Origin: Fibrobacterota bacterium
Lineage (GTDB): Bacteria; Fibrobacterota; Fibrobacteria; UBA11236
Assembly (NCBI GenBank): GCA_028287505.1
Contig: JAQBPN010000074.1
Location: 22,266-86,265 of the forward strand
Reading direction: 5' to 3'
Length of the DNA: 64,000 bases
Part shown: positions 10,357 through 64,000 of the stretch, one piece after another
How the letters are laid out: each line of letters begins with the position of its first letter
Position numbering within the stretch: the stretch's first letter is position 1
Translations under genes and position numbers: made by a program
The notes under the pieces: generated by a model
Databases searched by the model: none
What the model was told of the DNA's origin: nothing
Seen by the model: the letters and a program-made list of their open reading frames with translations, nothing else

Positions 10357-10417
10357 GGCCTTACCGCCCAGGTGCGGCGGGCTCAGGGCTGCATGACCGC
10401 CGGGGACTGTATATATT

Positions 10418-19089: not shown

Positions 19090-19169
19090 ACGGGGCACGC
19101 GCTTGCGCCCCTCGTTTGTCATGAGCCTGAATCAACCCCTTCTGCGCGAACCTTGAAATTGGGGCCCAA

Positions 19170-30255: not shown

Positions 30256-30717
30256 TCAACTGGGCCGTTCCGCACGCTCGGGCCAGATCCCGAAATGGGT
30301 CAAATCCTCGTCCACGCCGGGCATGACCTCCAGGCGGGCGTAAGCCGCCCGATCCACCCAGGCATAGGCGGTATGTTCGGCGCTGAGGCGGATCTCGCCT
30401 CCGGACCAGAGCATGTGCCACAAGTGGATGAAACCGCCGTATCCGCCGATGGCCTTCAAGGTGTCCGGTCCCCTCTTGGTCACCAGACGGATGTCCGGAC
30501 CCAGCTCTTCCAGGAGTTCCCGCGTCAACCCCTGTTCCGGAGTCTCGCCCGCCTCCACGCCTCCGCCGGCTATTCCCCATTTTCCCGGCCATCTCAAAGT
30601 GCCCGGCGATCTGCGCAGCAACAGGATCTCGTCCGCTTCGTTGACGATGATGGCGGCCGCGAACTCCCGCGGCCCCGAAGGATCCGGAATGCCCGGGGAT
30701 CGAAGGTCCTCAGCCAT
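30256..30717 (-). CDS. NUDIX hydrolase
   Basis: Nudix box GIAGGGVEAGETPEQGLTRELLEELG. Start at the internal Met MAEDLRS, overlapping the miaA stop. Confidence 0.75.
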   Translation of the reverse strand: MAEDLRSPGIPDPSGPREFAAAIIVNEADEILLLRRSPGTLRWPGKWGIAGGGVEAGETPEQGLTRELLEELGPDIRLVTKRGPDTLKAIGGYGGFIHLWHMLWSGGEIRLSAEHTAYAWVDRAAYARLEVMPGVDEDLTHFGIWPERAERPS

Positions 30718-33629: not shown

Positions 33630-34517
33630 TCAGGCGAACACGTTTCCCGATAGGTAGCGGTCGCCGCGATCGCAAATGATGGCGACGATCACTCCGGACT
33701 TGATCCGCTTGGCGATTTCCAGGGCGCAATAGACGGCCCCTCCCGAAGAAATGCCCGCGAAGACTCCTTCCTTATGGGAAAGCTCCCGGGTCCAGAGCTC
33801 CGCATTGGCCTGGCTGACGTCCAGGATTTCATCGACGCGGGACTTCTCGTAAATCTTGGGCAGATATTCCACGGGCCAACGGCGGATGCCGGGGATGCAG
33901 GAACCGTCCGTGGGCTGGGCGCCTACGATGCGCACCTCGGGATTCTTCTCCTTGAGGTAGCGCGAGACGCCCATGATGGTTCCGGTGGTGCCCATGCTAG
34001 ACACGAAATGGGTGATGCGCCCTTCCGTATCCTTCCAAATCTCCGGACCCGTGGTCTCGTAATGGGCGGCGGGATTGTCGGGATTGGAAAATTGATCGAG
34101 CATGTGGAAACCGCCCTGGGCCACTTTGGCCCGGGCGTAATCGATGGTGCCTTCCATGCCCTTCTCCGCCGAAGTAAGATGCACGATGGCGCCGTAGGCC
34201 CGCATGGTCTTGACGCGTTCCGCGGTCGCGCTTTCCGGCATCACCAGATGCATTTCGAACCCGGACACCGCCGCGATCATGGCCAGGGCGATGCCGGTGT
34301 TGCCGCTGGTGGGCTCTATCAGCTTCATGCCGGGTTTGAGGGTTCCCCGCTCCAGGGCTTTGAGGATCATGGAACGCGCGGGCCTGTCCTTCACCGAACC
34401 GCCGGGATTGTTTCCCTCCAACTTGGCGAAAATCTTCACGTTGGGATTGGGGTTGATCCGCTTGAGCTCCACCATGGGAGTGTTGCCGACCAGGTCGAGT
34501 AAGGTCATGGGCGTCAT
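33630..34517 (-). CDS. cysK: cysteine synthase (O-acetylserine sulfhydrylase)
   Basis: PLP-lysine motif NPGGSVKDR, GNTG loop, and SSGGA. Confidence 0.9.
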   Translation of the reverse strand: MTPMTLLDLVGNTPMVELKRINPNPNVKIFAKLEGNNPGGSVKDRPARSMILKALERGTLKPGMKLIEPTSGNTGIALAMIAAVSGFEMHLVMPESATAERVKTMRAYGAIVHLTSAEKGMEGTIDYARAKVAQGGFHMLDQFSNPDNPAAHYETTGPEIWKDTEGRITHFVSSMGTTGTIMGVSRYLKEKNPEVRIVGAQPTDGSCIPGIRRWPVEYLPKIYEKSRVDEILDVSQANAELWTRELSHKEGVFAGISSGGAVYCALEIAKRIKSGVIVAIICDRGDRYLSGNVFA

Positions 34518-34602
34518 CGGGCTCCGTCCTCTATGCTTCCAGGATCACGGGAAGCAACGCGTCCCGTATCCCTTTGAAAATAGTAAAAATTGCTATTTTC
34601 GC

Positions 34603-38446: not shown

Positions 38447-40111
38447 TCAATCTATGAGGCTTATCTTGGCCGATCCGGATTTGACGACCTTGCTCCCCTG
38501 CAGAAGCTGGATGGACGCGAAATAGATTCCGGGAGCGACGCTCGCACCCTGCGAATCCTTCATCTCCCAGGACATGGCCGCGGACCCGGAGGCGGGATTC
38601 AAAGCGGAGGCGCTGGAGAAAATCGGGCGGCCGTCTATATCGCGCACCGTAAGGCGGGCCTGGGAGGCGCCTGTACCGGTCATGGTGATGCGGACGGGAT
38701 TGCCGCCGCGATGGGCCAGTCCGGGCTGCGCGAAGCAATCCGATGCGCCCTGCGTCCGGGACAGGCCGTTCCCGCCTACGAGGGTGGAAACCTTTCCGGT
38801 CCAGGGGATGGAAATCGTGGTGGTGGCGTTGGCGGCGATGGTCTTGTTGGTTTCCGTCGAGGCGATTTCCTTGGCGGTGCCCGAGGTGTAATCCATCAAA
38901 GTGACGCTATTGATGGTACCGGCGCCGCCTTTGGAAATGACATGCAGGAAAAAGCGCGCGTCCGAACCGGTCAGAAGCGGGACGAAATCCGTCACGTCCA
39001 GGCCGATTTCGATGGTCGAGCTCTGCCCGATGCCCATCATGGGAAAGGGGCCGCCACCGAAGTTGAATGCGCCGGCGTAGTCCATGTTCTTGGTGGCGGT
39101 GGTGGCTGCGGCGGAAGGAGCCACCCCGGTCATGATAGCGATGTTGTTGCGCTGGTTATGGGTGATGGACACCTTGAGCGCGAACATGGGCGAGTAGTTC
39201 TTCTTCACGTTGACGAACATGACCGGGGTTCCCTGGGCATTCGCCAATCCTGCGCCGGTCTTGAAAAGGGAGTATTTGGCCCAGAAATAATCGTTGCCGC
39301 CCCCCTCTCCCCAGCTGTTCACGAGCAGGTAGGAGCCTCCGTTGAAAGTGTCGTCGTACCCGACGATATCCAAGGCATGTCCGCCCGCGTTGCCCATCGA
39401 CGAAATGACCCTTCTGCCGCTCACGGTGGTCATGTGCTTATCGATATCGTCGCTGTTCATCTGGAAAACCAGCATCCCGCCGGCGGACGATCCGTCGGCA
39501 TGGTCGTAAAGGTATTGCTTGATCAACTCATCGCTGCCCGCCAGGCTGGCGTCGATCTTGTAGTATTCGCTGGCGCGGACCTTCATGGCGTTGTAGTACT
39601 TGGCGTAGCCGCTGGTCCATCCGCCGAAGCCGTTGCCCCAGGACATGCCGCCGAAATCGGTCGTGGCCATTCCCCCGGTCGCCTTCAGGATGTCGAAAGC
39701 CTCGACGAACATCCAGCCGTCGCCGCCTTCCGACTCATTGGCGCTGTTCAGGAAATGATAGGTGTATTCGAAGGTATACTTGGGAGTGCCTCCGCTGGTG
39801 GCCAGGTTCTGCGCCATCTGCTCTTCATAGGTGTAGGCGTAGGAGACCGCGGAAGCGTTCGCGCAGGCCCAACCGTTTATTCCCCAGGTACCCACCGGCG
39901 GCATCCACTTCTGCTTGGTGATATCCGCCGTGGCGGGAAGCGGATGGGCGGTCCTGTCCTTATACATCGCGGGCAGGACGAAGTTCGGGATCGAAGTCAT
40001 CTTGGCGGCCGTCACCGGGCCGAACTGCTTTCGCACCGGCGACGGGGTTTGGGAAAAAGCCGGTACCAGGACCCCGCCTATCATGATGGAAACGAGAATG
40101 CCTTGTTTCAT
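38447..40111 (-). CDS. secreted papain-like (C1 family) cysteine peptidase with a C-terminal T9SS/FlgD-Ig-type sorting domain
   Basis: Signal peptide; C1 motifs (GGHALDIVGYD, LVNSWGEGGGNDYFWAKY). The C-terminal about 85 aa match the Por-secretion-tail pattern (NPVRI..LTVRDIDGRPI..SWEMKDSQGASVAPGIYFASIQL..KISLID). Confidence 0.65.
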   Translation of the reverse strand: MKQGILVSIMIGGVLVPAFSQTPSPVRKQFGPVTAAKMTSIPNFVLPAMYKDRTAHPLPATADITKQKWMPPVGTWGINGWACANASAVSYAYTYEEQMAQNLATSGGTPKYTFEYTYHFLNSANESEGGDGWMFVEAFDILKATGGMATTDFGGMSWGNGFGGWTSGYAKYYNAMKVRASEYYKIDASLAGSDELIKQYLYDHADGSSAGGMLVFQMNSDDIDKHMTTVSGRRVISSMGNAGGHALDIVGYDDTFNGGSYLLVNSWGEGGGNDYFWAKYSLFKTGAGLANAQGTPVMFVNVKKNYSPMFALKVSITHNQRNNIAIMTGVAPSAAATTATKNMDYAGAFNFGGGPFPMMGIGQSSTIEIGLDVTDFVPLLTGSDARFFLHVISKGGAGTINSVTLMDYTSGTAKEIASTETNKTIAANATTTISIPWTGKVSTLVGGNGLSRTQGASDCFAQPGLAHRGGNPVRITMTGTGASQARLTVRDIDGRPIFSSASALNPASGSAAMSWEMKDSQGASVAPGIYFASIQLLQGSKVVKSGSAKISLID

Positions 40112-40174
40112 AGTTGCTCCTTTATGGCAAAAAACGTTCCCCACCGCGGCACCGCTGCCGGAGCCGGGTTCGAC

Positions 40175-50090: not shown

Positions 50091-52625
50091 TCACTCGGCC
50101 TTGTCGAAGCCGAGCTCGAATCCCGAACCCAGCCTCAGGAAATAGATGGGCGCGTCGTCTTCGACGCTCCCCAAGCCTGCGCGCAGGGTTCCCAGGGGCG
50201 TAACATACCCCGCCTGGACCTCCCAATGGAACCGGAACGGGATTTCCTGACCGCCGAAGCTTCCGAGTTCCGCTTGCTCGGGGAAGAAGGTGCCGCCGTA
50301 ATTCCGATAGGCGCCCGCAATCAGCCTCAGGCCCGCCTTTCCGAAAGTAGGCCCGTACTCGAGCTTGACGTCCCGGAAGCTCCGGGAACGCAAAAAGGTG
50401 AAGAAGTACTCGTCCTGGAAGGTAAAGGCGTCGATGCGCCCGGCTTCTATCATGTCATAGAGACCGAAATCCCTGGTTTCCTGATCCGACCAGAAATATT
50501 GGTCGGAAAGCCGGAAATCCCCCAATGTGAAACGCAGGCGGGATTCCAGGCTTGAAAAAGGGTATTTGACCTGGCCGACGGTATTCACGCGATTGTAGTT
50601 CCGAAAACGCAAACGCAATGCGTGCGGATAGAATCCTCCCGGATCCCGCTTTCCAAGGCCCAGGAATGCCGTCTCCTGGAAATCCGTGGACAGGAAGGAA
50701 GGTTCCCCTTCATCGGGGACGGACATCTCGTGTTTCTGGACGGCGGTGCGGAGATAGGCCGATGGGAAGGGGAAAATGGTGAGGAACAACTCCGACAGCG
50801 TCCGGTCCAAGCGAAAGGCCCAAGGGCCCTGGTACCGGGCCCCCTTGGGCGGGACGAAATTGGGATAGAGTTCATTCCAGTTGGTCCGCGTCAGGCCGAT
50901 TTCCAGGTGCAAAGGGAAGACCGGAGCGATCATGAAGCGACCTTGGTACCCCGGACGATGCCCGCCCAACAGCAGACCCGCTTCCGCCTCGAAAGGAATG
51001 TAAAAAGGTTCGCTCCAGGCCACGCCGCCATACACTTCCGGCGGGCGATCGGGGAGTTCCTCTCCCGTGAAGGTGAAGTTGTATCCCGCGCGGAAATCGA
51101 TCTTGGATTTTTCCTTGGCGTCGAAAATAAGCGACGCCTTCTCCTCCGGGCCTCCCCGGGACCATTCCAGATCGAGATCCGTGTAGAAACCGGACTCCAC
51201 CAGGGCGGCGATTGCCCCTTCCCCGCTGCTGTCTTCCGGATTCCTATCCGAAGTGCGGACGATATCGAGCAACAGCTCCCTGCCGCCGGAAGCCAGCGGA
51301 TTGACCGATAGCCGGTTGAGCCCCAGGCGTTCCTCACCGCCGGGCTTGGGGCCGGACGGCGGCGTATCCTTTTTGTGGGTCAGCACGGATTGCAGGATGT
51401 CCATGGACCGTAACGCGGAGGTATACCCCAGGTTCATCCAACGGATGGGATCCGTTTCTTCCGGATCGAATTCACCTTCCGGCTCCAGTTCGATGACCAT
51501 CCTTTCCCGCGCCTGTCCCGCGGAAGCCTCGCCTCCGACCCCGGGGGCCGGAATGCGGCGTTTGGTGCGGAGGTTCAGGGAATCGGTCCAGGAAACGGAA
51601 CCGCCCTCCAGGGACGAGGGCCTCAACCGGTGTCCGGGCTGGATCAAAATGATCCGGTCGCAGGAGAAAGGCAACTTGTCGGACATCACGGCGTTGCCGG
51701 ACAGCAGGGAGCCCGAAGCGAAGGGCCACAGGCGCTGCCGCTGGCGGACAACGCCGGCGGGCAGGAGGGAAGCTTTGACGATATTCTGGAGGTTCCCATC
51801 GGTCAGGACCGCCTCCTTGTCGGAAGTCAGGTCCGAAACCTGCACGGCCAGGCGCCGCGGCGTTTCCGCCAGGTCCTCCACCGGCCCTCCCGGGGCGTCG
51901 TGGGTCAGTTGCGCCACCATCCAGGAAAGGTGCAGGTATTCTCCCGTCTCCCCCATGGTCACATCGCTCCACCGCGATCCGGGAGTCTGCAGGCTTTGCA
52001 GTCCCAGGGGAACCTCCCATTGCATGGGATCCGGTCCGGGCGGGTAAAAGGTCCTCTCCGCGCCCCGGTCCCGGGTAGGAAAGGGACGCAGATATCCTTC
52101 CAACGGCCGGCGCATCAATTCCTTTTCGGTTGCGGCGGAGGAATAGCCCAAGGCCCAAGCCGCGCCGACCACCACCGCTTTCGATTCCGCCAGCACGGCG
52201 TCGGGTTCCAAACCGAATTCTTCCAATGCCTTCAAGACGCCCAGGTAGGCATAGACCAGCTTGCTGTCCGCGCTCAGGAACAGAACGTTGCCGTAGTGGT
52301 CGGGCGTGCGCGCGGTCCTGTTCGCGGGTGCCGCTTGCGGCAAGGCGCTCAAGGAATCCCGCCCGGCTTCCGGGGATTCCGGTTTCCCTCCGACGGCGGG
52401 AACAGGGGGCGTGGACCCGGGAGAAGCCGTGGCCGGAGGAAGGGCCTCGGGCGGCTTCGGGGATTCCTGACGGGAAGCGGAATCCCCTTTGGATGCCTTG
52501 TGCGGTCCGGAAGTATCCAGAAATACAAAAGCGAAGGCGGGGCTCAGGAGTCCGAGCGTCAGGGCCGCGAAAATGAAGCCGCAAAGGGCGTTACGGGCAG
52601 GTTGCCGTCCAGGCGAAATCAGCAT
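50091..52625 (-). CDS. PlpD-like two-domain protein: divergent patatin-like domain plus C-terminal Omp85-type beta-barrel (type Vd-like)
   Basis: Signal peptide. The patatin-like block is LFLSADSKLVYAYLGVLKALEEFG...AESKAVVVGAAWALGYS with a DGN Asp motif. A Pro-rich linker and a long C-terminal amphipathic beta-barrel region follow. Confidence 0.55.
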   Translation of the reverse strand: MLISPGRQPARNALCGFIFAALTLGLLSPAFAFVFLDTSGPHKASKGDSASRQESPKPPEALPPATASPGSTPPVPAVGGKPESPEAGRDSLSALPQAAPANRTARTPDHYGNVLFLSADSKLVYAYLGVLKALEEFGLEPDAVLAESKAVVVGAAWALGYSSAATEKELMRRPLEGYLRPFPTRDRGAERTFYPPGPDPMQWEVPLGLQSLQTPGSRWSDVTMGETGEYLHLSWMVAQLTHDAPGGPVEDLAETPRRLAVQVSDLTSDKEAVLTDGNLQNIVKASLLPAGVVRQRQRLWPFASGSLLSGNAVMSDKLPFSCDRIILIQPGHRLRPSSLEGGSVSWTDSLNLRTKRRIPAPGVGGEASAGQARERMVIELEPEGEFDPEETDPIRWMNLGYTSALRSMDILQSVLTHKKDTPPSGPKPGGEERLGLNRLSVNPLASGGRELLLDIVRTSDRNPEDSSGEGAIAALVESGFYTDLDLEWSRGGPEEKASLIFDAKEKSKIDFRAGYNFTFTGEELPDRPPEVYGGVAWSEPFYIPFEAEAGLLLGGHRPGYQGRFMIAPVFPLHLEIGLTRTNWNELYPNFVPPKGARYQGPWAFRLDRTLSELFLTIFPFPSAYLRTAVQKHEMSVPDEGEPSFLSTDFQETAFLGLGKRDPGGFYPHALRLRFRNYNRVNTVGQVKYPFSSLESRLRFTLGDFRLSDQYFWSDQETRDFGLYDMIEAGRIDAFTFQDEYFFTFLRSRSFRDVKLEYGPTFGKAGLRLIAGAYRNYGGTFFPEQAELGSFGGQEIPFRFHWEVQAGYVTPLGTLRAGLGSVEDDAPIYFLRLGSGFELGFDKAE

Positions 52626-53645: not shown

Positions 53646-54449
53646 TCAGATGAAATCGCGCTTATTGAACCACAGGCCCGCGATCAACAGATAAATACCG
53701 ATGAACATCAGGCCGTATAGGCTGCTGTACAGCACGTAGTGATGGCCGATGGGCAGATCATAAACCACCCGCCCGCGGATATTGAAGTTTTCCATGTTCG
53801 GGATGATGTAATACACCCCTTTGATGACTTTTTCCGTAAAGGGATTGATCACCGGGGTCCCGGGCAACCGTTTTCCGAATTTATGGATGAAGGCCAGATG
53901 GTTTACGATGTCCCCGGAGAGGTGGCCGGCCACGTAGACGCCCAAGGTAAAGAGCGCGCTCATGGTGGGCGTTGAAAAGGCGGAGAAGAGCAGCGCGGCG
54001 GCGGTAATGACGGCCATTTCCACGAAAATGAGATAGATGGCCCAGAGCAGATTCGCCTGCGGCCGCGTGCCGATAAGAATCAGGATGAGGAAGAAGACCA
54101 GCGTCATGAAAGCCAGGTTGAGGGCCAGCACCATCAACAGGCCCAGGTATTTGCCCACGATGAAATGCCACCGCGGCAAAGGCTTGGCCAAAAGGGTCAG
54201 AATCGTCTTGCGCTGGATTTCCTTCTGGACCAGGCCTATCCCCACGAAGATGGACATCAGCAGCCCGACCAGGGACATGACGGCCAGGGAAAAGTCGGAA
54301 ATGACGGTCTGCCTCGCGAACACGGACCATTCCCCGAGCATGAGGGAGAAAATGATGAGACCGATGGCGAAGAGCACCAGGTTGTAGAGGATTTTATCGC
54401 GAACGGTTTCCCGGAAAGCGTTCACGGCGATTATCAACATCGGTTTCAT
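53646..54449 (-). CDS. ABC-2 family transporter permease
   Basis: Six-TM ABC-2 profile. Start at the internal Met MKPMLIIAVN; ATGA-coupled to the ATPase. The 190 aa upstream in the track ORF are rejected. Confidence 0.7.
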   Translation of the reverse strand: MKPMLIIAVNAFRETVRDKILYNLVLFAIGLIIFSLMLGEWSVFARQTVISDFSLAVMSLVGLLMSIFVGIGLVQKEIQRKTILTLLAKPLPRWHFIVGKYLGLLMVLALNLAFMTLVFFLILILIGTRPQANLLWAIYLIFVEMAVITAAALLFSAFSTPTMSALFTLGVYVAGHLSGDIVNHLAFIHKFGKRLPGTPVINPFTEKVIKGVYYIIPNMENFNIRGRVVYDLPIGHHYVLYSSLYGLMFIGIYLLIAGLWFNKRDFI

Positions 54450-55354
54450 ACGTTTTTCGCAACCTCTTCGGCGAGCACGTCTTCCAGGGAGTGACGATTG
54501 CGGCTGATGGATTCGATGCCTATTCCCTGGGCCAAGGCCCATTGCAAAAAGGAACGCTGGGACTGCAGGTCCGGACAGGAGACTGCGCGCGCGCCAAGAG
54601 AAGTCCCTACGCCTTTGGGAAGGTCCTCGGGTTTGACTTCCGCCGTGAGCACGATTTGGTAATGTTCGGCCTCGCCTTCCAGAACCTGGGCGACGGTACC
54701 CTGACGGCGGATTTGCCCGTCGACCACCATGGCCAAGCGCGTGCAAATCGCTTCCACGTCGCTCAGGACGTGGCTGGAATAGAAAACGGTGATTCCCTGG
54801 GAATGCAGGTTCTGCAAAAGGGCGCGCACATCGCGGCGGCCCAGGGGGTCCAGTCCGGACATGGGCTCGTCCAGGATGACCAGCCGCGGCCGGGACAGAA
54901 GCGCCTGGGCCAGACCGATGCGTTGCAACATGCCTTTGCTGTATGTCCGCAGCTTGCGGTCCATGGCCTCCGGGCGGAGGCTGACGAGCTCGGTCACCTC
55001 GGCCACGCGCTTCTTCAGATCCTTCCATGCAAGGCCGGAAAGCTGGCCGTAGAACCAGAGGAATTCCCTGCCGCTGAGGTAATCGTAAAAGTAGGGTTGT
55101 TCCGGAAGGAACCCGACGTTCTGGCGGCTCCGGGGCGAACCCGCCGGCAGACCCATCAGGGTGGCCTTGCCGGAACCGACCTTGAGCAGCCCCAACAGGA
55201 TTTTGATGGTGGTGGATTTGCCCGCGCCGTTGGGCCCGATGAAGCCGTACAGGTCGCCCTCATTGACCTCGAAGCTGACGCCGCGCAACGCTTCCACGGA
55301 TTTGCGCCAGAAGCCGATCCGGTAGGTCTTGCGGAGATCCTCGACCTTGATCAT
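54446..55354 (-). CDS. ABC transporter ATP-binding protein
   Basis: Walker A GPNGAGKST, Q-loop, signature motif LSGGQ-like (YSKGMLQRIGLA), Walker B LVILDEP and H-loop. Confidence 0.85.
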   Translation of the reverse strand: MIKVEDLRKTYRIGFWRKSVEALRGVSFEVNEGDLYGFIGPNGAGKSTTIKILLGLLKVGSGKATLMGLPAGSPRSRQNVGFLPEQPYFYDYLSGREFLWFYGQLSGLAWKDLKKRVAEVTELVSLRPEAMDRKLRTYSKGMLQRIGLAQALLSRPRLVILDEPMSGLDPLGRRDVRALLQNLHSQGITVFYSSHVLSDVEAICTRLAMVVDGQIRRQGTVAQVLEGEAEHYQIVLTAEVKPEDLPKGVGTSLGARAVSCPDLQSQRSFLQWALAQGIGIESISRNRHSLEDVLAEEVAKNV

Positions 55355-55361
55355 GGCCGTG

Positions 55362-55673
55362 TCAGCCCTGTTGGCGCTTGCGGAACCTGCGATAGTAAGT
55401 GATGGCCCTGCCGCCCGCGTAGGATACGAAACCTGCCAGCAGCAGGTAGCGCCCCAGGACGTTGGGATTGAGGGAGAAGTCCTTGTGCTTGAAAAACTCC
55501 CTGGACCCGGTCCGATCCAGATAGAGACAGAGGGCCGCCAGCACCAGGAGACCGATGCCTATCGCCACCAGGTACCAGCTGACTGTCGCCAAGCCGTCCT
55601 CCTTCCCGAAGGAGTCGTAGGCTGAGGGATCGAATTTTCCGTTTTCGGTCGGCTGCTGATCTTGTTCCGGCAT
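55362..55673 (-). CDS. hypothetical small two-TM membrane protein
   Basis: Start at the internal Met MPEQDQ; two hydrophobic helices; stop adjacent to the ABC ATPase start. Confidence 0.35.
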   Translation of the reverse strand: MPEQDQQPTENGKFDPSAYDSFGKEDGLATVSWYLVAIGIGLLVLAALCLYLDRTGSREFFKHKDFSLNPNVLGRYLLLAGFVSYAGGRAITYYRRFRKRQQG

Positions 55674-55844
55674 GGGGGAAAATATAAACGTTCCGGGAGT
55701 CCTTGACCACGATCTGAGCCACCGCCCCCGCGAATGGCCCGTGAATGTTGACTGGCTTCGGCATATAACGGTCCTAGTATAAGCCTTGCGACGGGCGGGA
55801 TGCAACCCCTCCCCGTTCCCTGGGCGCCATGGACCGGGGGTGTT

Positions 55845-56483
55845 TCAGCGTTTCAGATCTTCCGCCAGTACCGTGCGCCCGCCGAACTGTTCCAAAATGA
55901 AAATCGCCTGCTCCAGATGGGTCGGCTTGCGCTGGCGGGCCAGCGACTCCGCCCCCTGGAGGATGAGCGGCAGGGATTTGACGAGATGGAATTTCCAGGC
56001 CCCGCCTTCCCGGATGAATTGGAACACGGGCACGTTAGGCGCTTCCCGCAGGCCGATTTCCCCCACCTCGCCGCGCACCTTCGCCTCGCCGATTTCGGAC
56101 TTGAGGAGGCTTTTCTTCACCGGCCAGCTCTGGATGACAAGCTTGTCCAGGATGGCTACGGGGCGATCGTCGAAGCCGGGGTTCAGGCGCCGCTCCACTC
56201 GCAAGGCAAGGATGCTGAGGATCTCATAAAAGGGACGCTCCGCCAGATAAGCGGGGGCCTCCGTGCGCGAGGCGCGGCGCATGTCGTCTATCCAATCCAG
56301 GGATTCCCGGGACAGATAGGCGGGAAGGGAGTCCGCCTTCCCTTCCTGGACCCGTTGGCGGAAGCGCAGGAAAAAGGCGTCCAGATCCTTGCCCGCCGCC
56401 GGGTCTTCCGGAAGCGGCGGCCCGGAACCGCCGCATGCGGCGAGCAGCAGGAAACCGCAAAAAAGGGCGGGATGGATTCTCAT
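55845..56483 (-). CDS. hypothetical lipoprotein
   Basis: Signal peptide plus lipobox LLLAACGG. Confidence 0.45.
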   Translation of the reverse strand: MRIHPALFCGFLLLAACGGSGPPLPEDPAAGKDLDAFFLRFRQRVQEGKADSLPAYLSRESLDWIDDMRRASRTEAPAYLAERPFYEILSILALRVERRLNPGFDDRPVAILDKLVIQSWPVKKSLLKSEIGEAKVRGEVGEIGLREAPNVPVFQFIREGGAWKFHLVKSLPLILQGAESLARQRKPTHLEQAIFILEQFGGRTVLAEDLKR

Positions 56484-56526
56484 CCGGAAAATATACCAAG
56501 CCGGCGGCGCGGTTTCCGGCCGGTAT

Positions 56527-58887
56527 TCACACGCCGGACTCGAGGCGGTTCCGGTAGATGCGGATCTTCTTCTCCCAGTTGCGCTGGTTGAATTCGTCGT
56601 CGGCCCGGAACTTCTTGAGTTTGTAGGCTTCCAGCAGTTCGGCGATGGCCTGGCGATCGTACGGATTCCATTTCACCAGATACCCCTCGATGATCGTAAG
56701 GGCCTCGTCGATATTGCGGAAATCCACGGTGGTATGCTTGCGCCAGGTCCAGAAGGCCAGGTCCGCCGCTGATCCCGGGATCTTGTCTTCCGACTCCAGC
56801 AGCTTCAGGGCGATGCGGCGTGCGGTCTCGGGATCGTCCTGCACGTAGCTCTGGCCCAGGAGAAACTCCAAGGTTACCGACTCCTGCTCGTCCAGGTCGA
56901 TGTACCCCAAAAGCACCTCGCCCGCCTTGGCATCGTCCCCCATCTGGTAGTAGCAACCCGCCAACAGGGTGGCCATCGCGCTGGACAGCCGGTTTTCCTT
57001 GCGATACCGTTCGATGAAGCCTATGGCGCGCGCATAGTCCCCGCGCTGATACAGGCTTTGCAGGTATTCCAGGATCTGGCTTTCATAAACATCATGGCCG
57101 ATCAGGAAACCCGAAATCACGGAGTCCTTGACCGCGGGCAAGGGGCGTTTGCCGATCAGGCTTTCATATTCCCAGTCCGCGAAGAAGAAACCGTGCCCGG
57201 CGGAACGGCCCAGGTGCGAGGCCTGCCGATCGACATCGTCCTCGTTCATGTGGGCGATCAGGAATTGCAGGTAGGCTTCGTTCTGGACATCGATATCCTG
57301 GCCCAGGATGGCCTTCAACTCCGGAATCTTGGCCTTGGGAACCACGATGCCCATGGTGTTGTACATGTGGCTCCAGTCCTGGCTGAACTCACTCCAGCGC
57401 TGATCGTCCCAGATGTCGTAAGTGTTGACATCATAGGTGACCAAGGTCTGCAACACCTGATCGTAGCCGAACACGGCGATCACATGGCCGGGAATGAACG
57501 CCAGCACCGGAATCCCGTGATCGATGAGCTTGAAGATGTCGTTCAGGGATCTCAAGGGAAGCACCATGTTGGCGAAGCCGCGGGATTCGCTGAAGAAGGC
57601 TTCGTCCGTGATCAGGCTGCCGCGATCCAGTTGGGTGATTTCCGCTCCGATCCGTTTGGCGCCGCTGCGGTCGCCCCAATAGTTGAGGACCAGGCCCAGG
57701 GAATTGGGAACGCAATAGGCGCTTTTGTATTCGGTGCGCGCTTCTATTCCGGGTATGACCACGCGCTTGAGGGTGCTGTCCCTATCCTTTTCCAGCTTGT
57801 CCCGGAAATCGTGGGCTTCCAGAAGCAGGCGGGAATCGTGATAGTACTTCACCAGCACCCGGATGAAGGCTTCCTTGGATTCCTCCAGGTTCCCGCTCTT
57901 GCGGTGCAACAGAGCCACGCGGAATTGCAGGTAGGATTTCAGATTGTCGGAACGGCTCCAGGTCAGGGCCCGGGAATACCAGGGAATGGCCTTTTGGGGC
58001 GTGCCGGATTTTTCATAATGCTGGCCCATGAGCAGAGCGTAATTGATGGGCAATCCGGTGACCACCGCCAGTCCGATCATGGCCAGCCCCACCGAGACCA
58101 GGCCCATGGCGTACGCGCCCAGGAAGCCTTTGCCGGATCGCCAGAGCCGCATGCAATGGTGCACCAGGATGGGGATGCTGGAAAACCACAGGACGAAGAA
58201 GAGGATCTGCCGCGTCCTGTCCAACCAGGCGGGAAAGATGGTCAATTCTTCCACCTGCCAGAGCGGAATGGTGACCAAGAGCAGATGGAGCTGGTTCACG
58301 AAAACATGCGCGCCGGTAACCAGCAGGATGAGGCCCACCAGGCCCGAGAGGGACCAGCCCTCCCCCTCCTTGGAGGTCTGCATGGCCGAGAAGAACAGCA
58401 GCAGGCCGAAGTTCAGCCAGACCACGCCCAGTTCCGAGGAGATGGAATCCACGGATGCATTGATGGGGTAGTAGCTGCTCCAAAGCAGATCGGACAACCA
58501 CTGTTCCATGCTGGCCAGGAATACGGCCATGGGCAACGCCGCCGCCGCCAGGGCCAGGGACGTGCGCAAGCGCCGATATGCGGGAACCGGGGAAGGCGTT
58601 CCCCTCTCGATGGGCATGATGACCATTGCCGCGAAGCCCCAAGCCAGGTTCCAGCCCGCGAGCAGTATGGAAATGAACAACCAATTGAAGGGCAGCCATG
58701 CGACCGCGGGAAGCGGAGCGAGCGAAGCCAGAATCATCAAGGCGCGGAAAAAGCGGGACCGGGCGCGCCCCACATAGGGCATGAAAGGCCACGGTCCGGC
58801 CAGCACCATCAGGAAATACACGAAGCCGGGCAGGTGCGCCAGGACCGGGCGGTGGGAAACGGCGGATTGCGGACCGGGTTTGATCAT
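56527..58887 (-). CDS. polytopic membrane protein with a C39-like (Peptidase_C39_2, papain-fold) domain and C-terminal TPR repeats
   Basis: About 9 N-terminal TM helices, then EYKSAYCVPNSLGLVLNYWG (the C39_2 Cys motif) and GHVIAVFGYD (His motif), then TPR-like repeats (LYQRGDYARAIGFIERY...). Confidence 0.5.
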   Translation of the reverse strand: MIKPGPQSAVSHRPVLAHLPGFVYFLMVLAGPWPFMPYVGRARSRFFRALMILASLAPLPAVAWLPFNWLFISILLAGWNLAWGFAAMVIMPIERGTPSPVPAYRRLRTSLALAAAALPMAVFLASMEQWLSDLLWSSYYPINASVDSISSELGVVWLNFGLLLFFSAMQTSKEGEGWSLSGLVGLILLVTGAHVFVNQLHLLLVTIPLWQVEELTIFPAWLDRTRQILFFVLWFSSIPILVHHCMRLWRSGKGFLGAYAMGLVSVGLAMIGLAVVTGLPINYALLMGQHYEKSGTPQKAIPWYSRALTWSRSDNLKSYLQFRVALLHRKSGNLEESKEAFIRVLVKYYHDSRLLLEAHDFRDKLEKDRDSTLKRVVIPGIEARTEYKSAYCVPNSLGLVLNYWGDRSGAKRIGAEITQLDRGSLITDEAFFSESRGFANMVLPLRSLNDIFKLIDHGIPVLAFIPGHVIAVFGYDQVLQTLVTYDVNTYDIWDDQRWSEFSQDWSHMYNTMGIVVPKAKIPELKAILGQDIDVQNEAYLQFLIAHMNEDDVDRQASHLGRSAGHGFFFADWEYESLIGKRPLPAVKDSVISGFLIGHDVYESQILEYLQSLYQRGDYARAIGFIERYRKENRLSSAMATLLAGCYYQMGDDAKAGEVLLGYIDLDEQESVTLEFLLGQSYVQDDPETARRIALKLLESEDKIPGSAADLAFWTWRKHTTVDFRNIDEALTIIEGYLVKWNPYDRQAIAELLEAYKLKKFRADDEFNQRNWEKKIRIYRNRLESGV

Positions 58888-58894
58888 CTGAGGT

Positions 58895-61525
58895 TCAAGT
58901 GCTCCGGTGCTGCCAGTTTAGGTGGACCTGCATTTCCGGCTTGTCCCCGCGATGGCGGTAGTAGTCGGCGAGCAAGGCGTGGGTCTCCCCTATCGATTTG
59001 TCCACCTTGAGGCTGCGCGCCAGGGCTGCGTAGGCCATGCGGTAATGCCCCTTGCGCATGGATACGGCTCCCTTCATGGTGAGATACTTCGCATCCTCGG
59101 CGAATCCGGGACAGCGGGCCAGCAGGCCCGGAAGCTCATCCACCTTGCCCAGCTTCAGTTTCGTCCAGGCCAGCCGGTACAATGCGGATTCGTTGCCGAA
59201 AGGGTACAGACCCGACAGTTCCGCATATAGGCCTTCGCTCCCTTTCAAATCCCCGCGGCGGGCCAGCAGGGTGGCCAGGGAGTCGGTGTACAGCGGTTCG
59301 TCAGGATCCATCCTATGCAATTCCCGGAACAGGCTGAGGGCCGTATCCATGGCCGCCTTGGACTCGGCCGAGGTGTCCGGCATGGGAGCGACATACCAAT
59401 TCATCATGAGGTAGGAACCCAACTCCCCTTTCATGATCCGGGCGACGATATCCTTTTCCACCTTCTTTTCCGGTCCCAGCTTTTCCATCCAGGCGGGCGG
59501 ATAGTCGTAGAACAGGTTCTGATAATCCCGCGCGTCCGAGGCGAACTCCCAATAGCGGCGCTTGAGATAGACCATGCGCGAAAAGACCTGGTCGCACGGA
59601 TGCAGGGACGCCGCCTGCCGATAAGAGGCCGCGGCCTGCTGGTAGTTTTCATGGTCCTGGTAGTAGACGTCCCCAAGCTCCACCAGGAAGGCGGCCTTGC
59701 GCTCCGAAGGGCCGACGAATGCGCTGTCCCCAAGGATCAGGCCCACCCCGCCGATGTCGAGGATGTGCTCTTCCAGATCGGGCCGGGAAACGAACTTCTG
59801 CAGGCTGTACTTGAACGCGCGGGTCTTCTTCTTCTCGGTTTCGCCCCCGAAAGCCTCCCCGGCATGGTGGTAGAAAAGATCGGTGTCCTCGTTGCGGAAC
59901 CAATCGAAGCCCCCCGGCGCATTGTACGAGTAGTAGTAGAACCCGTCCCTGCCCGGATCGTACCCGGAAATGGGAACCCAATGCCCGTAGAGGCTCAGGA
60001 ACGGAACCCGCCCGGCGGCGAGCGCCGCCTTGATCCGATCGGCGGTGAGAAAACAGGTCGAGGCGGGCAATTGCAGTTGCCGCAACGCCGGAATCAGCTC
60101 CGGAACGTTTTCCATCTTCGGCAAATGCAGTTGCACCGTATTGGACAAATCCAGCAGGCGTTTTTTCAATTCCAGATCCGTCCAATCCGGCTTGAGAAAG
60201 GCGACCGCGCTCAGCAGCGCGTACCATTCCTGATCCAGATAGGATGCGGGCTTGATGAGGGGAAGATCCAATTGCAAAGGCGCGGCGGCAGGCGTCCCCG
60301 CGGCCGTGCGTTCCATCAGCGCCAAGGCGCGATCCGCGCGCTTGCCCATTTTGGCGTAGAAGGGTTTGTTCCGGCACCTGCGCGAAAGGTTCCGCAAAAG
60401 CGCCCGGGCCTTTTCCGGATTACCGGCCTGGTATTCCAATTCCGCCCATTCCTCCAGGAGGAAAGGAGTCCGGTAGGCCGAGGGAGTGCGGGCCAATTGG
60501 GCTTTTGCCAGGAAGCGATAGAGGCCGTAGTCGTGCCCGTTGAAGCTGCGCTCCCGCATCCCGGCCAGGTAATAGTTCCAGTCCCCCAGCATGAAAAGCA
60601 TGTTGGCATACATGAGCAGGGAAGGAAGCCCCAGGAAAAATGCGCGCTTGGCGAACACGTTGGTGCGCCGCGAACCCACCAGATACCCGATGCCGAGCAG
60701 GAACGCGCTGCCGTAAAACACCGCCTTCACCGCCGTCCGCCATTTCTGTTCCAGGTTGAACGGGAGAAGGAGGGTCTCCCGATCGGAACCTTGCAATTGC
60801 GCCGACAGGAAAAGATCGAAGCGCTCCCAGATCATGATCCAGGCCAGGACGGCCAGGACGGCGGCGTAGAAATAAATCAGCGCGCGCAATCCCGGTTTCA
60901 GCGATGCCTTCCAGGCCGCCAGGCCCGCTATGCCCACCAAGGGGGTGGCATAGATCATCCACAGCAATCCGTCCGTATAGACATCGCTGGGGAGATGGAT
61001 GGAAAAATTGTCCAGCTCTCCGATATTGTGGAGCAGGGCCATGATATAGACCAGGGGATAGATGGCCAATGCGGCCGCCAGCAGGGACTGTTGCAGCGAA
61101 TCGAATCGGATTGCTTCCGCCCTTTCCGCCGCTGACGGATTGGCGGGCGCCAAGCCTCCGGAATCCGGTTTTTTCACTTCTTGATCAAAGCGGAACAAGC
61201 TCGCCCGATCCTTGCGGAGCATGGACCAGGCGCTGGCCAACGCCAAAACCATATAGAGTAAAAGCAGCGCGGCCCAATGCAGGGGAGCCAGAAAAAGAAA
61301 AACCTGGAAAACCAGAAAGCCAAGACTGAGAACGAGGTTTCGGTTATAAGCGCCTTTTAGCAGGTTTCTCCGCCGCATTTTGGCGAACAAAAGAAACCAC
61401 AGGGCAAATGGGCCCAATAAAATCGAAACCAGGCCGAACCAAAAGGCCTTCAGTCCAGACGCGAAATCCGGTTTTCGGAGCAATAGGGTCCCTTTTTCAA
61501 TGCAAGCATACTTTTCATAAGCCAA
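58895..61525 (-). CDS. paralogous polytopic membrane protein: C39-like domain lacking the catalytic Cys, plus C-terminal TPR repeats
   Basis: Same architecture as the downstream gene. The His motif is retained (GHWVPISGYD) but the Cys position reads LDQEWYALLSAVAFL. Extensive C-terminal TPR-like helices. Confidence 0.5.
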   Translation of the reverse strand: MAYEKYACIEKGTLLLRKPDFASGLKAFWFGLVSILLGPFALWFLLFAKMRRRNLLKGAYNRNLVLSLGFLVFQVFLFLAPLHWAALLLLYMVLALASAWSMLRKDRASLFRFDQEVKKPDSGGLAPANPSAAERAEAIRFDSLQQSLLAAALAIYPLVYIMALLHNIGELDNFSIHLPSDVYTDGLLWMIYATPLVGIAGLAAWKASLKPGLRALIYFYAAVLAVLAWIMIWERFDLFLSAQLQGSDRETLLLPFNLEQKWRTAVKAVFYGSAFLLGIGYLVGSRRTNVFAKRAFFLGLPSLLMYANMLFMLGDWNYYLAGMRERSFNGHDYGLYRFLAKAQLARTPSAYRTPFLLEEWAELEYQAGNPEKARALLRNLSRRCRNKPFYAKMGKRADRALALMERTAAGTPAAAPLQLDLPLIKPASYLDQEWYALLSAVAFLKPDWTDLELKKRLLDLSNTVQLHLPKMENVPELIPALRQLQLPASTCFLTADRIKAALAAGRVPFLSLYGHWVPISGYDPGRDGFYYYSYNAPGGFDWFRNEDTDLFYHHAGEAFGGETEKKKTRAFKYSLQKFVSRPDLEEHILDIGGVGLILGDSAFVGPSERKAAFLVELGDVYYQDHENYQQAAASYRQAASLHPCDQVFSRMVYLKRRYWEFASDARDYQNLFYDYPPAWMEKLGPEKKVEKDIVARIMKGELGSYLMMNWYVAPMPDTSAESKAAMDTALSLFRELHRMDPDEPLYTDSLATLLARRGDLKGSEGLYAELSGLYPFGNESALYRLAWTKLKLGKVDELPGLLARCPGFAEDAKYLTMKGAVSMRKGHYRMAYAALARSLKVDKSIGETHALLADYYRHRGDKPEMQVHLNWQHRST

Positions 61526-61667
61526 AAATTTAAAGAGGAAAGTATAAAACCCCTAGTTCACAAGCAATTTGGAGGCATGCGGGTTGCGTTCTAACACCCT
61601 ATCTTTCAAGGAACTATAAAACCTTAATCCCGTTTTGGTTACAACACGTGTGAAATCCAACAAATTG

Positions 61668-61698
61668 TTGACGTGGGCAAGAGCGGGAGCCTATCTTT
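61668..61698 (+). promoter_or_regulatory. weak sigma70-like promoter candidate (TTGACG ... TATCTT, 19-nt spacer) in the divergent intergenic region
   Basis: Read directly from the sequence. The spacing is sub-optimal; the candidate lies about 270 nt upstream of the 61975 ATG. Confidence 0.2.
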
Positions 61699-61974
61699 CA
61701 TGGTACTTTGGGAGCGGATCTTCGACCTGTTCCCAGCATAAATTGAAAGACAGATTCTCCGTGGGCGTACGAGGAGAAATCAGTGGCTGAACATCTTGTC
61801 TTGTCAGTCGAAATTACGCCGAAGTGCATTATGGGGGACATGACTGTGCTTGATTCGCCGAAGGGCCGCCTTTTCGACCGGGCCCGTAGGAATTCAGCCA
61901 TGTCCGTATTTTCCCCCACCTTTGAATTCTCCCGATGCCTGGGAGTCGCCTTTAGGAGTGTCGCATGAAACCAT

Positions 61975-64000
61975 CCCTCGTCGTCCTCGTTGCGAAGAGG
62001 CTTGCGGATTTGTTCGTCGGTTGGGTCGGCACCCTGTTTTTCGTCGTCACCTATCCCTTCATCGCTCTTCTGATCAAACTGGAATCCAAAGGGCCGGTCC
62101 TATATTCGCAACAGCGGATCGGCATCAATCGCCGCGCCAGTCCCTACCAGATCTTCAAGCCCAAGAAGGAAGATGCGGTGGCGGCGGACGAAGCGGGTGC
62201 GTTCATCCTTTCCAACCGCCAGGTGGACTATGGCGGCGAACTCTTCACCATTCTCAAGTACCGCACCATGCGCGTCGATGCTGAGAGCCTGGGCCCGCAG
62301 TTGGCCAAAAAGGGACTGGATCCGCGCGTAACCAAGATCGGAAAATGGCTGCGCGCTTTGCATGTCGATGAACTGCCCCAGTTCGTCAATATCCTCCGCG
62401 GCGATATGAGCCTGATCGGCCCCCGCCCGGAACGCCCCTATTTTACGCTTCAGTATTCCAAGTCCATCCCCCACTATCTCGATCGCACCTTGTGGATCAA
62501 ACCCGGGCTGACCGGGCTGGCTCAGATCATCCTCGGCTACGATGACTCCCTGGAAAGCGTGGTCCGGAAAGTCCACTTCGACTATTCCTACCGCTCCGCC
62601 ACCAGCAGCTTCCTGACCTGGATCCGGATGGAAATCTGGGTGGCCGTCAATACCGTCCTCTACCTGCTGATCAAACCCCAGTTCGAAGGCGGCGAGAATC
62701 GGGACTTGGTAGGCCTCCGCCGCGCCAGGGTGGTCGATTTCCGGGCCAACTCGCCGTCGAAGAAGGACCTTCCGGAGATCAAGACCCTGGTGCACCAGCA
62801 TCAGACCAAGAGATCGATGATCCTGGTGGGGAGCAGCCCATACGAACTGAGCCGCACGCTGAAGGACATGGAACTCAATCCCAAGAAAACCCTGGACGTG
62901 CAGGTGAGCCCGGATGAGAACTGGGATCTGGAAGACCTGGGATTCCTGATCAATCTGGTGCACCGCGTCAAACAGACCGGCGGCCGCGTGGCCATCAAGA
63001 ATTCAAGCCCGCGCGTCCAGAAAATGCTGAAGGAAATCCACATGGACAGGGTGGTGGATCTCCACCGCCCCCAGGATACCGTCAAGAACTTCATGACCGT
63101 GGACGTGGAATGCTGGTTCCACGCATACAACCTCAAGGAGCAGGTCCCGCCCTCCACCTGGCATCTTCAGCCCACCCGCGTGGTGGCGAACGTGAAGAAA
63201 ATCCTGGACCTGTTCCGCACCCACGACACCAAGGCGACCTTCTTCGTGCTTGGATGGGTCGCCGATCATTTCCCGGATGTGGTGAAGATGATCGAGGCGG
63301 AAGGCCACGAAATCGGCACCCACGGCTACTACCATAACCTGCTGACCAACATGACTCCGTCCCAGTTCGAAGAGGATTTGGAAAAGTCCCTGGTTTCCAT
63401 CGGCAAACTCACCAAGCAGACCATCATCGGCCACCGCGCATCGAACTTCACCATCGTGGAATCGACCTTGTGGGCCTTGGAAATCCTGCATAAATACGGC
63501 ATCGAATACGATTCCAGCGTCTTCCCCATCAAGCGGGAACGTTACGGCATTTCCAAATATCCCAACCGCCTGCCCCACCAGATGCAATTCCAGAACGGGA
63601 AACAGATCACGGAAATCCCCCTTTCAACCCTGGGATTGGGAAACAAACTGCTTCCGATTTCCGGGGGCGGATACCTGCGACTTTATCCGTATGCGGTCAC
63701 GGACCGGTACATCGAGCAGAAGAACCAGCGCGGGCTGCCCGCCATGGTCTATTTCCATCCCTGGGAACTGGACACGGAACAGAAGCGGCTGAACGTGGGG
63801 GCCATGAAAGGCTTCCAGCATTACGTGAATCTGGACAGCACGGAATGGAAGCTGAGCCGTATGATGGAGCGGTTTTTCTTCACCTCGGTCAAGGAGAACC
63901 TGCAATCCCGCCGCGTGCAGTCCTTGTTGCGCAAGAACCCCGTGAAAGTGGAACGGATGATGGGGATTGCCACCGGGGAAGAAGGCGCGTTCCGCCTGGC
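61975..64000 (+). CDS. fusion protein: polyprenyl-phosphate sugar transferase (PglC/EpsL-like), STAS-like domain and DUF3473/PEP-CTERM-locus-type polysaccharide deacetylase; 3'-partial
   Basis: ATG at 61975 is preceded by an aggag RBS. Manual translation is stop-free to the window end (over 675 aa). Sugar-transferase motifs: KRLADLFVGWVGTLFF, YRTMRVDAE, DELPQFVNILRGDMSLIGPRP. Deacetylase motifs: FMTVDVECWFH, TKATFFVLGWVADHFPDVVKMIEAEGHEIGTHGYYH, GGGYLRLYPY, YFHPWELD. Absent from the ORF track, presumably because there is no stop inside the window. Confidence 0.75.

Follow-up and report, generated by a model that had tools for sequence, protein, structure and literature searches.

A predicted bifunctional phosphoglycosyl transferase and XrtA-type polysaccharide deacetylase with a STAS-fold middle domain in Fibrobacterota

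The window analyzed here, a stretch of 64,000 nucleotides from a Fibrobacterota bacterium (contig JAQBPN010000074.1 of GenBank assembly GCA_028287505.1), ends in a plus-strand open reading frame (ORF) that joins a small phosphoglycosyl transferase (PGT), a STAS-fold domain, and a CE4 polysaccharide deacetylase of the XrtA/PEP-CTERM type in a single polypeptide. This order of domains, which an initial annotation of the DNA had proposed, is borne out by Pfam, NCBIfam, profile, and predicted-structure comparisons. We lean towards reading the fusion protein as a bifunctional enzyme that initiates the synthesis of envelope or exopolysaccharide glycans and that would yield, at the cytoplasmic membrane face, a de-N-acetylated polyprenyl-diphosphate sugar.

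Reading frame and domain architecture

The initial annotation had rightly described a plus-strand ORF that stays open to the window end, but had placed its ATG at position 61975, where the base is a C; a translation from there contains many stops, and this frame is ruled out as the coding frame. The open frame is that of 61977. It is preceded by an in-frame TAG at 61953-61955, and its first start codon is the ATG at 61965, 10 nt away from the start first given. From 61965 to 63998 the frame has zero stops over 678 codons, and its N-terminus, MKPS..V...KR, is conserved among 63 aligned homologues. The orthologue at locus L008 has 699 amino acids (aa) and shows 95% protein identity, and 83% DNA identity over 7.5 kb of conserved synteny, so about 21 codons of the gene are expected beyond the window end. 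The features of the gene are as follows.

61965..64000, plus strand: fusion gene, 678 codons within the window and about 21 missing, 3'-truncated at the window end
61954..61958, plus strand: Shine-Dalgarno-like AGGAG with a 6-nt spacer to the ATG at 61965, read from the sequence
61965..62675, plus strand: small monotopic PGT domain, aa 1-237, with an N-terminal hydrophobic helix, a catalytic core, and a C-terminal amphipathic helix
61977..62084, plus strand: N-terminal membrane helix, aa 5-40, with the invariant Pro31, from the AlphaFold2 (AF2) helix 5-40 and hydropathy
62127..62234, plus strand: insertion of about 35 aa in the PGT domain, aa 55-90, with a predicted local distance difference test score (pLDDT) of <50 at aa 59-85 and the Pfam match split in two
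62367..62372, plus strand: Asp135-Glu136 catalytic dyad (HVDELPQ), invariant in the 63 homologues and aligning to DELPQ of WbaP
62421..62435, plus strand: PRPER, aa 153-157, the PRP nucleotide-binding motif of monotopic PGTs, invariant in the 63 homologues
62676..62786, plus strand: linker before the STAS domain, aa 238-274, partly conserved (EG..R.L..LKRAK), with low pLDDT in the domain-only model
62787..63074, plus strand: STAS-fold domain, aa 275-370, with the conserved block FDLEDLGFL...GGR and a Leu at the phospho-Ser position of SpoIIAA/TM1442
63087..63896, plus strand: CE4 deacetylase of the TIGR03006 type, aa 375-644, made up of Polysacc_deac_1 (408-501) and DUF3473 (517-645)
63102..63110, plus strand: Asp380-Val-Glu382 (TVDVECWFH), a variant CE4 motif 1, with D380, E382, and H386 invariant
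63321..63335, plus strand: His453-x3-His457 (THGYYH), the CE4 metal-binding motif, with H457 invariant and H453 in at least 90% of homologues
62100-62963 and 63003-63587, minus strand: shadow ORFs, not genes, with the GC peak at codon position 1 (0.79-0.81)

As the initial annotation stated, this 2-kb gene is missing from the supplied ORF track, which gives only the minus-strand shadow ORFs here; the list leaves out ORFs that run off an end. The two minus-strand ORFs are ruled out as genes by their codon-position GC, which mirrors the GC content at codon position 3 (GC3) of the plus strand. For the plus frame of the fusion, the GC content at positions 1, 2, and 3 is 0.57/0.36/0.79 and GC3 is uniform along the whole ORF, with confirmed window genes having a GC3 of 0.75-0.81 and the window a GC content of 60%. 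The gene fits an annotation as a bifunctional PGT/deacetylase, not merely as an "XrtA system polysaccharide deacetylase".

The N-terminal domain, previously called an initiating sugar transferase, is supported as such by the Pfam family Bac_transf (Pfam ID PF02397; E = 9e-47, 159.3 bits versus a gathering score of 27) and by the Asp-Glu dyad and the PRP motif, both named as motifs of monotopic PGTs in PMC10186338. The NCBIfam models TIGR03025, TIGR03023, and TIGR03013 align only by their catalytic C-terminal third, from about model position 284. A match limited to this third of the large exopolysaccharide (EPS)/WcaJ/TIGR03013 transferases indicates a small, PglC-sized PGT, and the catalytic domain of the fusion indeed begins at residue 1, having neither the four-helix transmembrane bundle nor a CoA_binding_3-like domain. 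A full AF2 model was built from the alignment of the 63 homologues (pLDDT 84.5, predicted TM-score 0.77). Foldseek matches its PGT end to PglC (PDB IDs 8e37_A and 8g1n_A; E = 1.1e-9, 26% identity, TM-score [target] of 0.69-0.72), and the N-terminal end also resembles WbaP. In a phmmer search, WbaP scored 65 bits versus 62 bits for PglC. The UDP-diNAcBac-specific cluster of PglC and EpsL is recognized by a GLLLP loop motif and a five-residue aromatic box. From its sequence, the fusion PGT looks unlikely to belong to this cluster; its insertion of about 35 aa stands where the loop region would be. A single segment (aa 15-40) lies above the transmembrane hydropathy threshold, with the hydropathy score KD19 reaching at least 1.6 only in sliding windows starting at aa 15-22, and AF2 draws aa 5-40 as one continuous helix. 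K11, R12, D15, and P31 are conserved in this helix among the 63 homologues, the basic residues preceding the hydrophobic stretch.

The C-terminal half had been assigned to the DUF3473 deacetylases of PEP-CTERM systems, and all three models that bear on this match. TIGR03006, "XrtA system polysaccharide deacetylase", scores 293.7 bits versus a cutoff of 276.2 and covers model positions 1-269 of 272, and Pfam reports Polysacc_deac_1 (Pfam ID PF01522) at 3.6e-19 and DUF3473 (Pfam ID PF11959) at 5e-39. Foldseek matches the C-terminal end of the AF2 model to the CE4 enzymes 3rxz, HP0310, ArnD (PDB ID 8t0j; E = 1.4e-8), and PuuE. The peptide DVECWFH is the most conserved of the family, where motif 1 reads D-V-E and not the canonical D-D. 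D380, E382, H386, H457, R491, and D516 are invariant in the 63 homologues, and H453 and H598 are present in at least 90%. HxxxH lines up with the zinc-ligand motifs HGYSH of HP0310 and HTYSH of Bc1960. We take R491, D516, H598, and D380/E382 to represent CE4 motifs 1, 3, 4, and 5, an assignment made from the general motif definitions, the alignment backing HxxxH only. Since the catalytic residues of the PGT and the CE4 domain are conserved, both catalytic domains look active as judged from the sequence.

The segment of about 100 aa linking the two enzymes, previously described as STAS-like, is weak in Pfam alone and clear from the family profile and the predicted structure. For the window sequence by itself, PF01740 reaches 18.1 bits over the whole protein (E = 0.002) and 21.4 bits for the domain, staying below the gathering score of 22.6. 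We extracted aa 238-374 across the family and aligned 23 diverse copies, 21 of which match PF01740 singly (best 2.5e-5). The STAS-domain profile, run against the PDB, finds TM1442 first (2.4e-4), followed by TM1081, RsbV, and SpoIIAA. With a domain-only AF2 model (pLDDT 70.6), the top 28 Foldseek matches are nearly all STAS proteins, led by PDB ID 1th8_B at 9.6e-6; SpoIIAA, RsbV, RsbS, TM1442, MlaB, and SLC26 are among the matches of this domain. It shares with SpoIIAA, RsbV, and TM1442 the beta-beta-alpha-beta-alpha-beta-alpha fold and aligns gap-free over the loop-helix "DxxxLG...GG", but differs in sitting between two enzymes and in its phospho-acceptor position. Here, a Leu found in at least 90% of members (DLEDLG) aligns to the Ser of the mDSaGLG/DSAGLG motif of TM1442, which we take to be the phospho-acceptor (Ser58 in SpoIIAA). 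Because the phosphorylatable Ser is replaced by Leu, the domain is not a classical partner-switching phospho-acceptor, and no partner kinase or phosphatase gene is conserved in the neighborhoods of the paralogue groups, which is a further difference from the SpoIIAA/RsbV systems.

The STAS domain is present in 46 of the 63 aligned homologues; of the rest, five carry Ala/Pro-rich linkers, and in 12 the linker is 50-78 aa long. Its profile matches 91 of the 120 best cluster representatives. The domain is most likely an accessory module restricted to a subclade of Fibrobacterota, and it may act as a scaffold or as a regulatory protein-interaction domain.

Distribution and gene neighborhoods of the fusion and its homologues

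The first homology search yielded more than 120 clusters with the transferase, STAS, and deacetylase Pfam domains, with lengths of 594-788 aa and mostly of 600-750 aa. About 170 single-ORF fusion sequences at 48-95% identity come from many samples and assemblers, so that the related metagenome-assembled genomes (MAGs) of Fibrobacterota, where the initial annotation had suggested looking for orthologous fusions, do contain them. No stop codon or frameshift splits the ORF, which is single in the representatives of the more than 120 clusters and in all 40 Fibrobacterota loci examined, with conserved domain junctions. The recurrence of one architecture over this range of identities, the conserved junctions, and the uniform GC3 make it scarcely conceivable that two or three genes were joined into the long ORF by an assembly or frameshift error.

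In a scan of species representatives, the single-ORF fusion appeared only in Fibrobacterota MAGs and in a few bins labelled "uncultured bacterium" or "uncultured Bifidobacteriales". The automatic names in the sources are "XrtA system polysaccharide deacetylase" or "sugar transferase", and one Joint Genome Institute (JGI) record carries a double name. The earlier remark that the arrangement is unfamiliar from characterized loci therefore holds in that the fusion is uncharacterized, but the fusion is not rare, being widespread and automatically annotated in Fibrobacterota MAGs.

Each genome has three to four fusion paralogues, for example, those at L008, L018, L025, and L048 in MAG SMAG_U8957. 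The window copy belongs to paralogue group G7, which shows 72-95% identity. Groups G8 and G5 have the STAS domain too, and group G1 has a linker of 54-69 aa without STAS. In the G5 paralogue of SMAG_U8957 (L025:7334-12082, plus strand), the frame extends without a stop for about 890 codons on the upstream side, and the stop-to-stop length is 1583 aa; this upstream open frame is absent from other G5 loci and represents either a larger fusion or a stop-free GC-rich stretch. Fibrobacterota also encode stand-alone deacetylases (L043:9905-11077, L044:9611-10993, P0124, and P0125) with 62-64% identity to the CE4 domain of the window. They have an N-terminal extension of about 80-100 aa, and at L044 a FemAB-like ORF is found 2 kb off on the other strand. 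These deacetylases may be a split or an ancestral form of the fusion.

No neighbor is common to all fusion paralogues, the synteny being specific to each group and mostly of housekeeping genes (mnmG, MoeA, CitMHS). Like the window copy, the other paralogue groups mostly lie amid unrelated genes and far from an exosortase gene, with three exceptions: L003, L039, and G5.

At L003, which lies on a 3.75-Mb contig, a polysaccharide locus begins with the fusion, whose end is overlapped by a full-length TIGR03019 FemAB-like gene (1.1e-56), followed downstream by Wza, sugar-nucleotide enzymes, a pyruvyl transferase, and Wzm/Wzt. Among the fusions, a TIGR03019 gene is adjacent only at L003/L004; none is found in the window or near any G7, G8, G5, or G1 fusion. 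L039, from a Fibrobacteria MAG, is a textbook XrtA/PEP-CTERM locus. The fusion is flanked on one side by PrsR/PrsK (PrsK with 342 bits versus a cutoff of 300) and on the other by a tyrosine autokinase, a PrsT-like TPR protein, an exosortase (8TM_EpsH with 137 bits versus 105), EpsI, a TIGR03108 amidotransferase (760 bits), and an stp3-like glycosyltransferase. The G5 paralogue at L089, from the metagenome of a close relative of the window, adjoins a PrsR-like sigma-54 regulator (TIGR02915, 438 bits), with a small protein bearing a PEP-CTERM-like C-terminus nearby, which suggests that this paralogue is under the control of an exosortase system.

L089:8341-9708 (minus strand), L089:557-1063 (plus strand), and L023:1830-3272 (minus strand): divergent PrsR-like regulator next to, or PEP-CTERM-tail protein near, G5 fusion paralogues

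Outside Fibrobacterota, the deacetylase homologue stands alone as a protein of about 280-310 aa; the CE4 domain comes right at its start, so that a signal peptide would have no space. Among 118 ORFs neighboring stand-alone deacetylases are 14 XrtA tyrosine kinases, nine PrsT proteins, eight FemAB proteins, and eight chain-length determinants, which confirms the earlier statement that the TIGR03006/DUF3473 deacetylase is normally a separate gene of exosortase/PEP-CTERM loci. A FemAB-like gene directly follows the stand-alone deacetylase in at least 13 loci of other phyla, and a PGT gene is directly upstream of it at L067, L069, L073, and L077.

A search of 1.84 billion representatives revealed further PGT-deacetylase fusions with 36-43% identity (P0127, P0128, P0129, P0131, and P0134), none of which has a STAS insert. 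P0131 has a large PGT with CoA_binding_3. These fusions arose independently, because their CE4 domains are nearest to stand-alone deacetylases and not to the Fibrobacterota fusions. Two of them sit in exosortase/EPS loci. P0128 has EpsI on one side and glycosyltransferases on the other, with an exosortase upstream, and P0131 comes after a Wzz/kinase gene. Of the distant fusions, the one at L088 is in an exosortase locus. A GT4 or GT2 glycosyltransferase, placed before or after the deacetylase, is the fusion partner in P0140, P0142, P0152, P0164, P0174, P0187, P0188, P0200, P0203, P0248, and P0263, and one fusion of 1105 aa carries both GT2 and GT4.

Proposed reaction and alternatives

In the scheme that we prefer, the PGT would be anchored by one re-entrant-type helix at the cytoplasmic face of the inner membrane and would move an N-acetylated sugar-1-phosphate from a UDP-sugar onto polyprenyl phosphate, giving a polyprenyl-diphosphate-linked N-acetylhexosamine or derivative. 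The metal-dependent CE4 domain, tethered beside the membrane, would then strip the N-acetyl group from the lipid-linked sugar. The resulting free amine might be kept, or a FemAB/VimA-like enzyme encoded by a separate gene might re-acylate or aminoacylate it. The fusion thus suggests that the deacetylase acts intracellularly, at the very beginning of glycan assembly.

STAS domains are cytoplasmic modules, and the GT2 and GT4 fusion partners are cytoplasmic enzymes working on lipid-linked glycans. Together with the lack of a signal peptide in stand-alone homologues and the tether to the PGT, this argues for a CE4 domain in the cytoplasm close to the membrane. Most well-known polysaccharide CE4 enzymes are extracytoplasmic, and a second hydrophobic stretch at aa 216-236, FLTWIRMEIWVAVNTVLYLLIK, is fairly hydrophobic and has a weak AA_permease_C match. 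If this helix spanned the membrane, STAS and CE4 would be periplasmic and would deacetylate an exported polymer, like CE4 enzymes of the PgaB, PelA, and PplD type. We regard this topology as very improbable: the KD19 peak of the stretch is 1.33 and thus below 1.6, the helix maps to the C-terminal limit of the Bac_transf profile, the best match of which ends at profile position 165 of 179 (aa 217), and the STAS domain, the stand-alone homologues, and the glycosyltransferase partners all point to the cytoplasm. Of the earlier proposal that deacetylation takes place on a lipid-linked monosaccharide at the cytoplasmic face, the location is therefore well supported, but the monosaccharide stage is an inference.

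The independent recurrence of the fusion and the adjacency of the deacetylase gene to that of the initiating transferase make it likely that the two enzymes catalyze neighboring steps. A precedent for a CE4 enzyme acting on a lipid-linked monosaccharide is ArnD, the undecaprenyl-phosphate-L-Ara4FN deformylase, which takes an N-acyl group off a monosaccharide carried on polyprenyl phosphate, on the cytoplasmic side of the membrane. ArnD shares the CE4 fold and is a structural neighbor of the fusion model, but it has only 11% identity, is not fused, lacks the DUF3473 extension, and acts on a formyl and not an acetyl group and on undecaprenyl phosphate and not the diphosphate.

The reverse channelling, in which the CE4 domain would first de-N-acetylate a UDP-amino sugar in the cytoplasm for the PGT to load, is the strongest competing scheme, although we consider it unlikely. 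A fusion alone fixes no reaction order, and the deacetylase often lies amid nucleotide-sugar-modifying genes (epimerases/dehydratases and the amidotransferase). The scheme drawn up for the Wbp/Vim proteins also leaves the position of VimE and VimA relative to lipid transfer explicitly unknown (PMC7468200). VimE of Porphyromonas gingivalis is a CE4 protein proposed to remove the 2-N-acetyl group so that the TIGR03019-like VimA can add Ser/Gly, giving the sugar to which type IX cargo is attached, and the set of deacetylase, FemAB, and amidotransferase has been pointed out in PEP-CTERM loci too (Veith et al. 2020, PMC7468200). The fusion resembles VimE in its CE4 deacetylase and, at L003, in the TIGR03019-like gene directly after it, whereas VimE is a separate protein with an unknown substrate stage and the window copy has no VimA-like gene nearby. 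If the UDP-sugar were the substrate, however, the FemAB-like re-acylation of canonical loci would have to fall between two fused activities. The recurrent fusion to GT2/GT4 and to a membrane-bound PGT points instead to a membrane-proximal, lipid-linked substrate, for which the ArnD type of CE4 enzyme is the nearest mechanistic precedent.

Action at a later stage, on a cytoplasmic lipid-linked oligosaccharide or repeat unit within a PGT-nucleated complex with STAS as the docking module, ranks next and seems to us quite unlikely. In its favor are the deacetylase fusions to GT2 and GT4, which act after initiation, the STAS fold as a classical protein-protein interaction fold, and a PGT regulated by a protein partner, as described in PMC12802240. 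On the other hand, several independent PGT-deacetylase fusions and the frequent direct adjacency of PGT and deacetylase genes favor consecutive steps, and STAS is dispensable, being missing in the paralogues with linkers of 54-69 aa and in the distant fusions.

Several points weigh against initiation coupled to deacetylation as we propose it. Most of the genomic evidence leaves the reaction order open to a UDP-sugar or a later lipid-linked oligosaccharide, and the GT2/GT4 fusions fit the latter about as well. The sugar of the PGT does not appear assignable by similarity, WbaP and PglC being equally distant, so an N-acetyl-hexosamine-type substrate is what we infer; a re-entrant rather than spanning N-terminal helix is likewise suggested by the likeness to PglC. 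No glycan- or EPS-cluster gene and no FemAB-like gene is found within 10 kb of the fusion or in the 64-kb window, and the pathway partners of the window's paralogue group are not evident from gene context. In the literature searched, "DUF3473" matched no paper, and no biochemical data were found for TIGR03006/DUF3473 proteins.

Bifunctional monotopic PGTs (BiPGTs) fused to acetyltransferases or glycosyltransferases are a recognized class, as described in PMC11626204. The fusion resembles members such as Neisseria PglB, a PGT with an acetyltransferase, in chaining a PglC-like core with the Asp-Glu dyad, the PRP motif, and one N-terminal membrane helix to a second, sugar-tailoring domain. It differs from the BiPGTs described in that paper in that its partner is a CE4 deacetylase, with the opposite chemistry, and in the STAS domain in between. 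As far as we have checked, a deacetylase partner, with or without STAS, is new to bifunctional PGTs, although the catalogue of O'Toole et al. 2021 may list the combination; a deacetylase form and a STAS-containing form would be added to the BiPGT catalogue. With the XrtA/PEP-CTERM systems carrying TIGR03006 and TIGR03013 (EpsB_2), the fusion shares the type of deacetylase and, elsewhere, the PGT, FemAB-like, tyrosine kinase, and PrsT neighbors. Unlike in those systems, the enzymes are fused, the PGT is small, and the window copy and most Fibrobacterota paralogues lie amid housekeeping genes.

The TIGR03006/DUF3473 deacetylases are signature genes of exosortase/PEP-CTERM loci and are biochemically uncharacterized. 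The repeatedly evolved PGT-deacetylase fusion provides a "Rosetta-stone" link that would assign deacetylation to the lipid-carrier stage in the cytoplasm, with the first sugar as the simplest substrate, and the single polypeptide makes the idea testable with existing PGT assays. A more far-reaching idea, which we regard as quite unlikely, is that the fused enzyme makes a polyprenyl-diphosphate amino sugar that provides the exosortase acceptor for the PEP-CTERM C-terminus, this being either the free amine of the sugar or an aminoacyl group attached to that amine. STAS would gate initiation by a cellular signal, and the three to four paralogues would be differently regulated entry points. The attachment target of exosortase substrates is still an open question, and such an acceptor would parallel the amino-acid-bearing linking sugar of type IX secretion. 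If true, the fusion would be the first committed enzyme of the exosortase anchor pathway.

Surroundings of the fusion gene in the window

The window copy and all G7 orthologues are monocistronic. Upstream, a divergent intergenic region separates the gene from a TPR gene:

61526..61964: divergent intergenic region of 439 bp between the TPR gene (minus strand) and the fusion gene

Neither a regulatory RNA nor a clear promoter was found in this region, which has no Rfam match at E <= 1 and one weak sigma-70-like site, not convincing and no more than is found in shuffled sequences.

The divergent operon (53646-61525, minus strand) is conserved next to every G7 fusion and encodes two TPR proteins, one of 876 aa and one of 786 aa, the latter with a weak Peptidase_C39-like region, along with an ABC ATPase, an ABC-2 permease, and two small proteins that match no family. 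The TPR/C39-like neighbors were rejected as PrsT, the similarity being that of generic TPRs (TIGR02917 at E = 4e-4; BLASTP at 1e-4 over 123 aa). Scanning all ORFs of at least 80 aa in the 64-kb window and in the 10-kb flanks on either side of the G7 orthologues gave no exosortase-like ORF. On the 3' side, the G7 fusions are followed by a convergent mnmG, beyond which lie prpD and the genes for citrate synthase and an isocitrate-lyase-like protein. Otherwise, the window is of a housekeeping nature, with SppA, purC, purH, TrmFO-like, TatD, LigA, MoaA, LptF/G, and BamD-like genes, a GGDEF protein, and a hybrid kinase.

Four ORFs have a coding-like GC3: 50094-52625 (minus strand, 844 aa) has no Pfam match at 1e-3, and 38450-40144 (minus strand, 565 aa), 30413-31876 (plus strand, 488 aa), and 9379-10632 (minus strand, 418 aa) have none at 1e-5. 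In the longest ORF of LigA (34204-36651, plus strand), the adenylation domain starts at residue 223, indicating a start further downstream or an unusual N-terminal extension. The genes for a hybrid histidine kinase/receiver protein (11009-12487, minus strand) and a GAF-GAF-GGDEF diguanylate cyclase (13799-15607, minus strand) are located close to LptF/G (16665-18104) and two genes for BamD/YfiO-like TPR lipoproteins (18145-20033).

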